From contig CAYYSJ010000001.1 of assembly GCA_964474445.1 (NCBI GenBank), positions 14,530 to 78,529 on the forward strand: a DNA stretch of 64,000 nt, in the 5' to 3' direction. Both the position numbers and the translations under genes were made by a program. The stretch comes from an uncultured Gammaproteobacteria bacterium (GTDB lineage: Bacteria > Patescibacteriota > Microgenomatia > Levybacterales > UBA12049). A model generated the notes under the pieces. That model saw only the letters and a list, made by a program, of their open reading frames with translations. It did not search any database and was not told where the DNA came from. Shown piece by piece: positions 7,959 to 20,011 of the stretch (positions are counted from its first letter, which is position 1; the number at the start of each line of letters is the position of its first letter).

Positions 7959-8252
7959 TTACTGTTTGTTCTCTGGTTTTGGATTGTCCAGGAGTGCTTG
8001 AACACCTAAGAGAATTGTTACCTTGTCTTCTGTTACTGTCATGACCCCTAAATCAACAGGAAATTTTCTTACATCCGCTCCCATGTGCAGTGTAAGTTCT
8101 TTCGTGATGATTGAAATAAAGTTTTCATGCAGGGGCAGGATATCTAACGGACCAAAAGTGTTAAAGGTTGAAATTGCATCAAGTGTTCCTTCAAACAGTA
8201 TAGAAGAAGGATCTTTTATCAAAACAGTGAGTGTATATGTTGTCTCTGCCAT
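7959..8252 (-). CDS. atpC: F-type ATP synthase epsilon subunit (short form, N-terminal beta-sandwich only)
   Basis: 97-aa ORF immediately after atpD (start overlaps the atpD stop by 1 nt); beta-sandwich-like sequence and the canonical operon position. Confidence 0.7.
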   Translation of the reverse strand: MAETTYTLTVLIKDPSSILFEGTLDAISTFNTFGPLDILPLHENFISIITKELTLHMGADVRKFPVDLGVMTVTEDKVTILLGVQALLDNPKPENKQ

Positions 8253-9646
8253 TATTTCGTCTTCACATCATCGAGTGTTGCGATAAAAAGGAATTTACGT
8301 GGATCAACTGTGTCAAATTTTCCGGAAAGAATATCTTGTACGTCCTTTATAACATCCTCCCTTTTTACATAGACTCCTTCTTTTCCAGTCTGTTCAGTTA
8401 GGGTATAAAAATTTTGCGTCATGTAATTCTTGAGAATTTGTGCCCGTTTATATATCTGCTGGTCTGTTATCGATAGTTCTGATTCTCCAATAAGGGAAAC
8501 AATTCGTTCTAGATATGATGCCTTTTTGAGTAAGCTTTCCGCCTGGATATGTGTTTGGTAATGATCTTCCCCGACAACTGCAGGTTTTAATGCTGATGAG
8601 GTTGATTCCAAAATATGCACTGCAGGGAATCTTCCTTCTTGATAGACAGACCGAGAAAGAATCAGTGTTGAGTCAAGATAAGGAAAAACAGCCTGCACTC
8701 CATAATCGCCCATATCATCTGATGGGACATAAATTGCTTCAAATGAGGTGATGCTATGTTTTTTGGTTGATACGAGACGTTCCTGGACCGATGCCATTTC
8801 TGACCCAAGTGTTGCCTGGTATCCACCTTCTGATGGAATGGTATTCATCAGTGTTGCAAGTTCGTATCCTGCTTGGGCAAAACGGAAAATGTTATCGATA
8901 AAGAAAAGAACATCTTTTTCCTCTTGATCACGGAAATATTCTGCAACAGCAACACCAGCTAGTGCGGTCCTAAGTCTCACTGTTGGGTTGGTTCCCATTG
9001 AACCATACAACAAACAGACACTATCAATGACGTTGCTTTCTTTGAGTGATTCATACAACTCTTGCCCTTCTCGAGTACGTTCCCCTACCCCTGCAAAAAC
9101 AGAGACATTATCTGACTTATGTAAAATAACAACATTATGGATAATTTCTGTCAGAAGCATTGTCTTTCCTACTCCTGCACCACCAAACACACCAACTTTT
9201 CCTCCCCGATAAATTGGTGCAAAAAAATCAACAACTTTAATCCCGGTTTCCAAAACAGTATTGGGAGAAATAATATTAGTAAGTCCAACATCATGCTGGT
9301 AGATTGGTCGTGTTGCCTTTGCCTTTATTGGGCCTTTCCCATCTTGTGATGCTCCAAAAATATCGATCACCCTGCCAAGCAACTCTTTCCCAACAGGAAT
9401 GGCAAGAGACTCTCCAGTATTTATAACCGATTTCCCTTTTTGTAATTTTTGCGCGTTAGAAAGAAGTAAACAATAAAAGCTGTTTTTTTGCGAGGATGCA
9501 AAGACTTCCATTTTGACAGTGTCATCATCTGCTAGTACTAACACATCATGGATTGCCGGTCTCCCGTCGACAAATCTCACTTCAATGAGTTGTCCGTTGA
9601 TACCAATAATTTTTCCTTCTTGTTTCATATTTTGTTCCTCTTCCAC
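8252..9646 (-). CDS. atpD: F-type ATP synthase F1 beta subunit
   Basis: Walker A GGAGVGKT; beta-specific [10 protein letters not shown] and [10 protein letters not shown] motifs; 464 aa. Confidence 0.95.
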
Positions 9647-19800: not shown

Positions 19801-20011
19801 TATGCATTTGCATGAGGACTTGGGTGAGCGGAACAGCACTGAGAAGAATGGCCAAGCCTCCTAACAACGACAAAACAAAAGAACGTCGCTGTTTTCTTCG
19901 TAATGACTCATGATTAGGAAAAGATGGGTTAACATTGGGAGAATTCGTATGAATCGCTTCAGATGAGTGCTGTAACAGCTGTTGAAAATAGGAAAAAAAA
20001 CGCATAAACAA
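13832..20011 (-). CDS. giant (2059 aa) Thr/Gly/Ser/Asn-rich repetitive surface protein
   Basis: Uninterrupted 6.2-kb ORF; N-terminal signal/anchor (SFVLSLLGGLAILLSAVPL); internally repeated modules (GNLGTTPVASLSGKTSFAGLVIDNSGLGDLFTAS x2; TLTNKTLTAP(T/A)INGTV(A/T)TTGLTLPAFTA x2; GNVGIGTT(S/T)P-type beta-helical or fibre-like repeats); ends 6 nt before the next gene. Confidence 0.8.
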   Translation of the reverse strand: MFMRFFSYFQQLLQHSSEAIHTNSPNVNPSFPNHESLRRKQRRSFVLSLLGGLAILLSAVPLTQVLMQMHNVSPTSVKDVLGIQDVPESLNGTIVFSIPAKFNNTVTFANGLSITGDTVIDGSLKASNIVYSVTPGTGIGITRGQHPTITNTGVTSLQGQTGDVTLTAGSGISISGTTITNTVSTPNFFGTVSDGTNSFSAGKNNDMFTLQAGTGVTLNTDTTNKKITFNASGGLSGLTTNGVLYATGATTTTTLTPGTAGYLLQSNGSGSAPSWVSSASLSTVSFDKITTGTNVSATMTVGTGGTITYTNSGIINANQLNGQTTSLGGSFTTSGGAVTLTLAGTTNVNLPTTGTLATLAGTETLTNKTLTAPTINGTVATTGLTLPAFTASGNITGSGSPTISSFGAINGLTLTANATGFGIAGGTTSKTLTVSNTLTLAGTDGTTMTFPTATDTVVGIGATQTLTNKTLTAPAINGTVTTTGLTLPAFTAGGNITGSGALSVTSGGATALTLDAGGAAGINIGTTNANGVTIGRSGVTTTVSGPLATSSTVNGLTLTSAADGFTVAGGTTSRTLTVTGSNITLTGGGNTLTLTGSTSINQNLLTTSSPTFAALTLNGNLTSAAGSQWKPSSDSTTGLQIANSSGTPLINFDTTNSFLKLGTGTSVYSGGTCKGTGANEACAPFHFVTATTNHNMIIENSTGPNLLTLAQATGGIPYEWTFNLNANTPGDFTLLDANGFSPFYINPNPNWMAIGRGFSSPKAVLHVQGGNTGGNAAFIVNQTGASANDIFSASASGTTKFTIGNNGNLVATGTLTGLTGLTSSGTIQFSSLSTNGLIKTTSGNGTLAIATSGTDYEVPLTFNNGLTRTSNTIKLGGGLTGNTDLPLSGFNLTFSGSGTVGVGTTSPLATLDVRGNLGTTPVASLSGKTSFAGLVIDNSGLGDLFTASSSGLSRFVITQNGNVGIGVTTPPQLLSVQAASGAIGQFYSTNTNTLAGTWFLNGTYSFGTNIGTDNKFHITGNINGATNLVTVDSSGNMGVGTTTPHGPLEIYYNNNGIPTADTIVANNPNNGSSAETRISLYNDLGVGAGTKGASLFLASSGWASPYTNALGFWNYLNGPIILATNNIERFRIDASGNLGIGTTSPLATLDVRGNLGTTPIASLSGKTSFAGLVIDNSGLGDLFTASVSGTTKFTIANNGNITANGLLTLNWPTITTSGGKGISSTGTIATTTSSATGYGLYETVTNTPATNADTAYGGYLSLNDTGNSLANTDIGLQVDVPNNNTSAKHYTVVLGASPTTNGAFVHSYTAGVNGGNSNDWFGIYWPTQSLYYGISQQLPAPSGTSTVGGYYKGLGIGGSVSGTTDPIFGVLNSAQSANGLGSTAFTIYANNTIDTFNNVLDDGSGNVTLAGGLTVKGTTVTIGNGSSSTIQTSSNAGLTLLSSGTGNITLGQGTGIGDVVVQPNGGGKAALVVNDQGLGDIFTASLSGVAKFTINRNGNVGIRNADTSNPFAILDVGTNGNGVNQIRAADGNFVVNQYGGINAPYFYYSGNSNWFADFQSAQHSFDGFVTVNDAGGSNPKATFDLRSAQGFNGNFAFGTLPIASVSGSTSFSSFIVDQSGVGDLMTASSSGLTRFVLTRNGYMGLGTTNPMYNLDLQGNFSATAAAQIYNTNTTANSGGLIVKLGFTGNGTVPTTQNNGNNFIRFLNGKGESQGSIDSNGGTGVSYNGNGLDMAEYFPKKDVNESLVPGDTVCLDVTGGVTKCISGKSIVGIISSHPSFVGGGNHAGDPNFTLVGLVGQLLAKVSTAQGNISIGDPLTIATDSGVLVKATSAGQIVGHAMESFNQQGTYGQIMVAVQPAWYDPGFYAGATSSSLNMPISASVSSQLQNVPLVADTATISQTLNVLGRTTVTDLGITGNVSAGLITIHGLEGKIDTLAGSLYLQYQRLGGIDFLNGLVTIDTSGNITTQGVIGAQTVQATQFVVKGTTSIGSAVIPQGSTSVEVDTPAMTASDKVFITPTTNITTPLSIAQKGNGKFVIQVSTPQQVDVHFDWFIVKNKL
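16455..17307 (-). repeat. two ~138-bp direct repeats (~93% identical) inside the giant gene (16455..16593 and 17169..17307)
   Basis: Near-identical DNA segments gaggcagtgaagagatcacccaagccagagttatc...gaagttgttccaa seen at both places; they encode the repeated protein module. Confidence 0.8.

Follow-up and report, generated by a model that had tools for sequence, protein, structure and literature searches.

We analysed a stretch of 64,000 nucleotides, called the window below, from genome assembly GCA_964474445.1 (contig CAYYSJ010000001.1, positions 14,530 to 78,529), deposited as an uncultured Gammaproteobacteria bacterium and assigned by GTDB to Patescibacteriota, order Levybacterales. Positions 7959-20011 of the minus strand contain an unusual F-type ATP synthase operon. 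It consists of eight intact and tightly packed open reading frames (ORFs) in the order giant, cfus, b, delta, alpha, gamma, beta, epsilon. Here giant encodes a membrane-anchored surface protein of 2059 amino acids (aa), and cfus is a working name for the c-like fusion protein encoded at 13046-13825. No gene for subunit a was observed in the window, and the c-like protein has no carboxylate at the canonical position. A preliminary description of the window gave eight minus-strand genes with overlaps or gaps of at most 6 nucleotides (nt), and the coordinates and junctions bear this out. The gaps are 1 nt between b and cfus and 6 nt between cfus and giant. The beta gene overlaps gamma by 22 nt when read from its GTG start and by 4 nt when read from the alternative ATG at 9628, and all remaining junctions are overlaps of 1-10 nt. 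Scans for promoter and terminator consensus sequences produced matches at chance level. Exact look-ups gave no record for the beta protein read from its GTG start, and placed alpha and cfus on short Logan contigs only.

The F1 head is encoded by alpha (10503-11957, minus strand as all eight genes; 484 aa; Pfam ATP-synt_ab, 8e-62), beta (8252-9646; 464 aa from the GTG start; ATP-synt_ab, 2e-62), a very divergent gamma (9625-10512; 295 aa; Pfam ATP-synt, 9e-22) and epsilon (7959-8252; 97 aa; Pfam ATP-synt_DE_N, 2.8e-6). The latter consists of the beta-sandwich domain only and lacks the C-terminal helical domain. Beta contains the P-loop GGAGVGKT and the motif GERTRE; the catalytic Glu and the arginine finger of F1 are likewise encoded in the window. 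The peripheral stalk is present as well. The delta/OSCP protein (11954-12418; 154 aa) scores 24.7 bits with Pfam OSCP (2.7e-5), above the cut-off of 22.3. The b-like protein (12415-13044; 209 aa) has one N-terminal transmembrane (TM) helix and, after it, a long helix. As a single sequence it matches no Pfam family; the profile of its family (alignment A3, 28 orthologues) matches ATP synthase b chains from PDB (9itj_U, 5e-6; 9o19_X, 7e-6) in register from the TM helix.

All these F1 subunits score below the NCBIfam equivalog cut-offs: beta has 459 bits of the required 463 (TIGR01039), alpha 383 of 484 (TIGR00962), gamma 55 of 194 (TIGR01146), epsilon 21 of 67, and delta 17 of 57. The NCBIfam models for epsilon give 21-26 bits, all under their cut-offs. 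Since no F1 subunit reaches its cut-off, the whole complex has diverged together. The preliminary description held F1 and the b/delta stator to be intact and catalytically normal. This stands for the catalytic motifs; however, the subunits are divergent, and epsilon is reduced to its beta-sandwich.

The c-like protein cfus

The cfus protein (13046-13825; 259 aa) can be described as a c-subunit-like rotor protein with a secreted N-terminal domain. It starts with a candidate signal peptide (aa 1-26, 13748-13825), whose likely cleavage site, as read from the sequence, follows VFA; all aligned members of the family have a hydrophobic segment at the N-terminus. The signal peptide is followed by a beta-rich domain of about 145 residues (the ectodomain, aa 27-170, 13316-13747), by a short helix and, at the C-terminus, by a helical hairpin (aa 186-259, 13049-13270). 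The AlphaFold2 (AF2) model built from a 28-sequence alignment has a predicted local distance difference test score (pLDDT) of 85.8.

Both profile comparison and structural comparison identify the hairpin as a c-subunit. Its family profile matches c chains only when compared with PDB. In Foldseek it superimposes on c-subunits from PS3, Spirulina, Chloroflexus, chloroplasts and mitochondria with root-mean-square deviations of 1.6-2.0 A and TM-scores of 0.7-0.83. The loop between the two helices contains R223-N224-P225 (13151-13159), the equivalent of the RQP loop; this triple is invariant in alignments A1 and A2, and the whole loop G-R223-N-P-L-A is invariant among the aligned members. The RQP loop of c-subunits binds gamma and epsilon. 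The predicted topology, signal peptide, ectodomain, TM1, RNP loop and TM2, agrees with that of a c-ring subunit, with the additional domain outside the cell and the loop in the cytoplasm. The GxGxGxG packing motif is absent. Single-sequence scans with Pfam and NCBIfam do not recognise cfus, and therefore it has been missed by annotation pipelines. Weak matches to Pfam ATP-synt_C appear in three of the 28 members, and weak matches to XM1_gp53 in 13 of them.

Relatives were collected by scanning one genome per GTDB species with a 13-sequence alignment of cfus. At least 330 genomes contained the gene, and the best 80 loci were fetched. Individual loci are designated L with a number below. Where the carriers are properly named, they are Roizmanbacteria, Levybacteria, Woesebacteria, Amesbacteria, Pacebacteria and other Patescibacteria (Microgenomates and WWE3). 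A hidden Markov model (HMM) search of 1.84 billion representative sequences yielded 796 clusters at 50% identity (E<=1e-30), and a word index gave 127 matches.

The carboxylate of the second helix is missing throughout this family. In the HMM alignment, E62 of the Spirulina c-subunit is opposite the hydrophobic I243 of cfus, that is, 20 positions after the loop arginine (R+20). An acidic residue, Asp or Glu, at R+19 or R+20 was found in none of the 263 homologues from the database and in none of the 85 derived from the loci. The conserved polar residue of this helix is N238 (13112-13114), at R+15: of the 263 homologues, 236 have N at this position, 21 have H, five have S and one has D. The position R+9 is frequently Q or E.

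One explanation is that ions are still translocated in a non-canonical way, with Asn or His at R+15, together with Gln or Glu at R+9, forming the ion site, and with an unrecognised protein replacing subunit a. The near invariance of R+15 and the common Q or E at R+9 are consistent with that. However, asparagine is neither protonated nor deprotonated, the R+15 residue is in the cytoplasmic leaflet and not in the middle of the membrane, and no conserved family of proteins with multiple TM segments accompanies the operon. Further, we know of no rotary ATPase working without a carboxylate. Hence we consider non-canonical translocation very unlikely.

Conservation of the operon and the search for subunit a

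The preliminary description suggested comparing the gene order in related genomes, and there the pattern recurs. The order cfus-b-delta-alpha-gamma-beta-epsilon is retained in approximately 75 of the 80 loci, wherever enough sequence follows cfus, and subunit a is absent within 10 kb. BLAST clustering recovered alpha and beta from 76 loci, gamma from 69, b from 68 and delta from 61; with family HMMs, b and delta were found in all complete operons but four. All 69 relatives compared for beta retain its P-loop and the motif GERxRE, and all 72 compared for alpha retain the arginine-finger motif S-V/I-T/S-R-V/I-G. The F1 part is under constraint, and the arrangement is conserved across a large clade.

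The four exceptional operons are minimal, cfus-alpha-gamma-beta-epsilon (L038:10001-14754, L043:9986-14548, L068:1706-6519, L082:9905-14910). Neither b nor delta was found within 10 kb of them, and a giant membrane-anchored ORF is still divergent upstream. A different variant was observed in about 21 Woesebacteria-like loci, in which the gene gpmI for 2,3-bisphosphoglycerate-independent phosphoglycerate mutase lies between cfus and b (L029, L036, L040-L042, L045, L047, L052, L055, L059, L067, L073, L075, L076, L078, L081, L085-L088). It places an enzyme of the glycolytic, ATP-yielding pathway inside an ATPase operon. In the WWE3 genome GCA_013335095.1 (L006:1-3678, L007:1-2909), a divergent pair of giant and cfus is followed, after cfus, by a gene for DHFR; no atp genes were found within 10 kb of this pair, and cfus may function, or be encoded, apart from F1 there. 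Many records of patescibacterial metagenome-assembled genomes with the operon (L010, L013, L014 and many more) are titled 'uncultured Gammaproteobacteria' or 'Pseudomonadales'. These titles appear to be placeholder taxonomy that would mislead surveys based on names.

That the 64-kb window has no ORF resembling subunit a was already claimed in the preliminary description, and several approaches agree with it. Translation of the window in six frames revealed no R-x-x-G/A-N motif in a membrane context. The best phmmer match of the E. coli a-subunit, with an approximate query sequence, had an E-value of 1.3. No ordinary c-subunit was found in the window either. Most of its ORFs with multiple TM segments belong to other families: DUF347, MauE, FUSC, GT2, PTPS-related, bestrophin-like, ion channel and DsbD_2. 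Three such ORFs, at 6517-7071, 28641-30641 and 62044-63162, have no family match and no likeness to subunit a.

The first of these three was considered as a cryptic a-subunit and rejected. It lies on the plus strand, convergent with atpC, and encodes 184 aa with five predicted TM segments. It matches no Pfam family, has no membrane arginine motif, and has no counterpart beside the operon in the relatives. It is also unrelated to an ORF of the same length in L008. The latter (L008:7572-8126, plus strand) consists almost wholly of PVG repeats, lies on the strand opposite to an adjoining gene for 2670 aa, and is probably a spurious or repeat-derived frame.

The search was extended to 1.2 Mb of flanks (10-kb flanks of 80 loci). 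The best E-value for the E. coli a-subunit was 0.5, no a-subunit was found, and canonical c queries recovered only cfus. Gaps of 1.7-3 kb between cfus and b in the approximately 21 loci mentioned above could have hidden atpB or atpE; this was ruled out, as they hold phosphoglycerate mutase. BLAST clustering identified no other membrane-protein family conserved near the operon across the fetched loci.

In the literature, the patescibacterial enzyme is regarded as a normal F-type ATP synthase that may work in reverse (PMC11665869, PMC9938205, PMC9166423), and according to reviews nearly all Patescibacteria have one (PMC11665869). It could thus be an ordinary ion-coupled enzyme whose normal a- and c-subunits are encoded elsewhere, with cfus as an accessory or minor component of the ring. 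Retention of b and delta in most lineages is what would be expected for a complex with a membrane stator, and the search for a and c covered the window and 10-kb flanks, which leaves room for such genes elsewhere in the genomes. However, cfus takes the very place of atpE in about 75 of the 80 loci, and neither a nor a second c was found within 10 kb in 80 genomes. The scores of the F1 subunits, all below the equivalog cut-offs, argue for co-evolution with an altered membrane part. Moreover, a passage in Kantor et al. 2013 (PMC3812714) reports a complete WWE3 genome without recognisable a, b or c. According to that passage, the adjacent 'a, b and c' are not homologous to any known subunits, and the putative c is similar to a membrane-spanning protein from ATPase operons of OP11 and WWE3. 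Most simply, the three unrecognised genes of the passage would be cfus, b and delta, and hence a would be missing there too. On balance, an ordinary ATP synthase seems improbable.

Even less probable is that the operon is a decaying, functionless remnant of an ATP synthase. Patescibacterial genomes are reduced, and some Microgenomates have no ATP synthase at all (PMC7143001). However, all eight ORFs of the window are intact, the architecture is present in at least 330 species-level genomes, and the catalytic motifs and the RNP loop are invariant. Because of this conservation, decay is effectively refuted.

The giant protein and candidate regulation

The giant gene (13832-20011, minus strand) has homologues flanking cfus in the relatives. 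Its product has a short cytoplasmic tail, a single TM helix (aa 43-66, 19814-19885; hydropathy scan and sequence), and a long Gly/Thr-rich ectodomain with internal repeats. Near the C-terminus is an auto-chaperone domain of the Peptidase_G2/intramolecular chaperone (IMC) type (aa 1732-1870, 14402-14818), which starts at the predicted autocleavage motif D1732-M-A-E-Y. It is followed by a conserved C-terminal domain (aa 1871-2059, 13835-14401) that ends with F-D-W-F-I-V and is common to L010, L018, L047 and L080.

As a single sequence, the giant protein matches Pfam Peptidase_G2 with an E-value of only 0.026. The profile of its family (alignment A4) matches the C-terminal fragment of phi29 gp12 (3gqh) with an E-value of 6e-11, the alignment starting at DFAEY, and chaperone domain D4 of the Dpo31 tailspike with 5e-8. 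The phage protein cleaves itself just before the Asp of DFAEY. Across the giant homologues of alignment A4, residues D1732, A1734 and E1735 do not vary. A homologue search with the C-terminal 339 aa produced two matches only. Judging by these similarities, giant encodes a tailspike-like fibre that is anchored in the membrane and contains a predicted self-cleaving intramolecular chaperone.

The ectodomain of cfus is a homologue of the same chaperone domain. In Foldseek it resembles capsid decoration or cement proteins of Borrelia phage BB1, TW1, T1 and XM1 as well as phi29 gp12 (3suc), and it can be regarded as a phage decoration protein/intramolecular chaperone-like domain. When its profile was aligned by hhalign with that of the giant protein's auto-chaperone, the probability was 99.8% and the E-value 1.9e-30 over 134 columns. 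The similarity is visible even in pairwise comparisons: BLASTP of cfus against the giant protein within the window gave 4e-4, and phmmer with the window's giant protein retrieved about 45 cfus proteins at 1e-5 to 1e-9. The catalytic Asp and Glu of Peptidase_G2 are replaced in cfus (G/S-I-A-x-Y, with G or S in the Asp column and a variable Glu column), and thus self-cleavage is not expected. Once the signal peptide is removed, the free N-terminus of cfus would be located a few residues ahead of the position that corresponds to the cleavage site. A PHROGs scan of the cfus ectodomain and the giant protein gave nothing useful.

The adjacency of the two genes was assessed in 60 loci with at least 2.5 kb upstream of cfus. 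In 47 of them, an ORF of at least 600 aa, often of over 2000-3000 aa, was found upstream of cfus at a distance of at most 1.6 kb; elsewhere the density of such ORFs is about 0.04 per kb. A divergent orientation of the giant gene was observed in 46 of the 47 loci, and a co-directional one only in L010, the closest relative of the window. Hence the statement of the preliminary description that the operon is headed by the giant gene applies to the window and L010, but not elsewhere. The pair of giant and cfus is kept where b and delta are missing, and also in the WWE3 locus without atp genes.

At the N-terminus of the divergent giant protein, 37 loci encode a cytoplasmic helix-turn-helix (HTH) domain of the MerR type (Pfam, 1e-12 to 1e-19), followed by a TM helix (examples are L049:8584-8975, L029:5093-5525, L041:9259-9980, L080:8708-9920 and about 30 other loci). 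The giant protein of L080 has the full architecture of HTH, TM, fibre and auto-chaperone. Of the 18 perfect palindromes TTGGACA-N(3-18)-TGTCCAA in the 1.2 Mb scanned, 14 cluster in the intergenic region between giant and cfus. Their half-sites have a density of 0.93 per kb in this region compared to 0.15 per kb elsewhere, a six-fold enrichment. The palindromes are mostly 15-50 bp from the giant start, and single sites are observed 40-190 bp upstream of cfus. The HTH-bearing giants are thus predicted to be membrane-tethered, putative DNA-binding surface proteins. The window's giant has neither the HTH domain nor a palindrome.

These candidate sites raise the alternative that the link is purely regulatory. 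The giant protein could be a membrane-tethered transcription factor of the MerR type, sensing events at the surface and controlling the divergent promoter of cfus-atp, and the ATPase, for instance a membrane-anchored ATP hydrolase, could be unrelated to the fibre. The HTH domains of the 37 loci and the positions and enrichment of the palindromes speak for it. However, it does not explain the homology between the cfus ectodomain and the auto-chaperone of the giant protein, nor why the lineage of the window keeps giant in the operon without HTH or palindrome. Regulation as the whole link is unlikely, although it is the least unlikely of the alternatives to the reading preferred below. Regulation and physical coupling are not mutually exclusive. 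We regard physical coupling of the complex to the giant protein as a real prospect, with chances a little under even.

Other ORFs of the window include one for 695 aa without a Pfam match (47591-49678, minus strand), located where the AT skew is the most extreme in the window (-0.27). The ORFs at 22079-24934 and 41405-42037, both on the plus strand, look copper- or metal-related: DUF1775 (YcnI-like), a PKD-plus-DsbD_2 fusion and an HMBD-MauE fusion.

Proposed function and comparison with known systems

The system is most likely not an ion-translocating ATP synthase, and we hold this with reasonable confidence. Without the half-channels and the arginine of subunit a and without a protonatable or Na+-binding carboxylate in c, the complex could be neither an ion-driven synthase nor an ion pump, which leaves hydrolysis only. 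We favour, with about an even chance of being right, a Microgenomates/WWE3 derivative of the F-type enzyme that hydrolyses ATP, does not translocate ions, and is mechanically or functionally tied to giant surface fibres. ATP would then probably be spent on work at the cell surface and not be made. The preliminary description had proposed both an F1Fo-derived ATPase unable to translocate ions in the canonical way and its possible coupling to the giant surface protein. The former gains support from the operon without a, the loss of the carboxylate in 263 of 263 homologues and the conserved residues of F1; the latter is favoured by the homology of the ectodomain and by the giant gene as a conserved upstream neighbour.

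A possible mechanism is as follows. The complex would consist of an F1 head (alpha3beta3, gamma and short epsilon), usually a delta/b stalk, and a membrane ring of cfus, without a. The cfus ring may form under gamma and epsilon, its RNP loops docking both. ATP hydrolysis would turn or strain the gamma-epsilon-cfus rotor, whose outer face would be a crown of auto-chaperone-like domains. Auto-chaperone domains of tailspikes oligomerise with one another; the crown may engage the corresponding domain near the C-terminus of the giant protein, a contact suggested by the homology and the gene neighbourhood. In this way, cytoplasmic ATP could be spent on assembling, holding or moving fibres. In its strongest form, the c-ring would have turned from an ion turbine into a drive shaft that transmits torque or conformational work to an extracellular chaperone-like crown docking giant fibres. 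This particular version is tentative, and we put it below coupling as such.

Several observations weigh against the favoured reading. The search covered the window and 10-kb flanks, and atpB or atpE may be encoded elsewhere on the 420,821-bp contig or on other contigs. About 8% of cfus members have His in place of Asn at R+15, and His is in principle protonatable. In most relatives the giants are divergent, with a MerR HTH and nearby palindromes, so that the adjacency could be regulatory and not structural. Finally, without subunit a, and in four lineages also without b and delta, there is no evident stator, and productive rotation is not assured.

The presence of an F-type ATP synthase has been used as an argument that Patescibacteria hold or exploit a proton-motive force without respiratory chains (PMC11665869, PMC9938205, PMC9166423). 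If the enzyme of Microgenomates and WWE3 (at least 330 species-level genomes, about 800 protein clusters) cannot move ions, metabolic reconstructions are wrong for that branch, and the puzzle of an ATP synthase without a source of the gradient would have a different answer there. Beyond the passage of Kantor et al. 2013, we found no description in the literature of an ATPase from the Candidate Phyla Radiation (CPR) lacking subunit a or the carboxylate, and none of a secreted chaperone-like domain on c or of a link to giant fibres. Were the drive-shaft version correct, it would be an ATP machine that folds, tensions or moves fibres outside the membrane of cell-wall-bound, energy-poor Patescibacteria, and a new class of trans-membrane rotary mechanotransducer. 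We consider the system a new variant of F-type ATPase that may credibly prove to be a mechanical device of a new kind, acting across the membrane.

Compared with canonical F1Fo (atpIBEFHAGDC), the gene order from the c position on, the F1 motifs, the OSCP-type delta, the single-TM b, the c hairpin and the R-N/Q-P loop are the same. In contrast, the window operon lacks a and atpI, its c-like protein has no carboxylate and carries a secreted domain of 145 aa, epsilon has no helical domain, and the subunits are below the NCBIfam equivalog cut-offs. Two features that define canonical F1Fo, the a-subunit and the c carboxylate, are not found in the operon. The N-ATPase (atpDCQRBEFAG) is similar as a divergent, laterally spread F-type operon. 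However, it keeps a and a Na+-binding c, the window proteins score 332 of 750 (alpha) and 416 of 752 (beta) with its models, and the gene order is different. The window system is not an N-ATPase.

The export ATPase of the type III secretion system and flagella, FliI-FliJ-FliH, is homologous to F1 alpha/beta, gamma and b/delta. The likeness is that of an F1-related ATPase with b/delta- and gamma-like partners on a membrane assembly that serves biogenesis of surface structures without ion coupling. The window system differs in having a hetero-hexameric alpha3beta3 of genuine F-type descent and a predicted c-like ring, and FliI models give 200 bits compared to 459 for atpD. No export-gate genes were found among the conserved neighbours of the operon. 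FliI-FliJ-FliH may be viewed as a more distant functional analogue. For the surface part, the closest parallel is the Peptidase_G2/IMC domain of phi29 gp12 and tailspikes, which aa 1732-1870 of the giant protein match from DxAEY on and of which the cfus ectodomain is a homologue. Unlike the disposable fibre end of gp12, the cfus domain would be permanently tethered to a c-type hairpin.

The F1-like ATPases of Mycoplasma (type 2, the M. mobile gliding motor MMOB1660/1670; type 3, MSC_0618/0619) have no Fo ion channel. Their task is not the synthesis of ATP, and they are associated with giant surface proteins, namely the gliding legs. The window system shares with them an F1-derived composition, the lack of an ion channel in or near the operon and a proposed tie to giant surface proteins. 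The window alpha and beta are below the cut-offs for types 2 and 3 (NF045863, 360 of 600; NF045858, 353 of 850; NF045934, 399 of 570; NF045936, 252 of 520). Besides, the window system keeps delta, b and a predicted c-like membrane ring, none of which is known from the Mycoplasma enzymes. Among the known systems, it would work most like the Mycoplasma ATPases, without being a member of their families. If so, it would be the second independent recruitment of an F-type motor to giant surface proteins, and the first in which the c-ring itself has been retained and remodelled.

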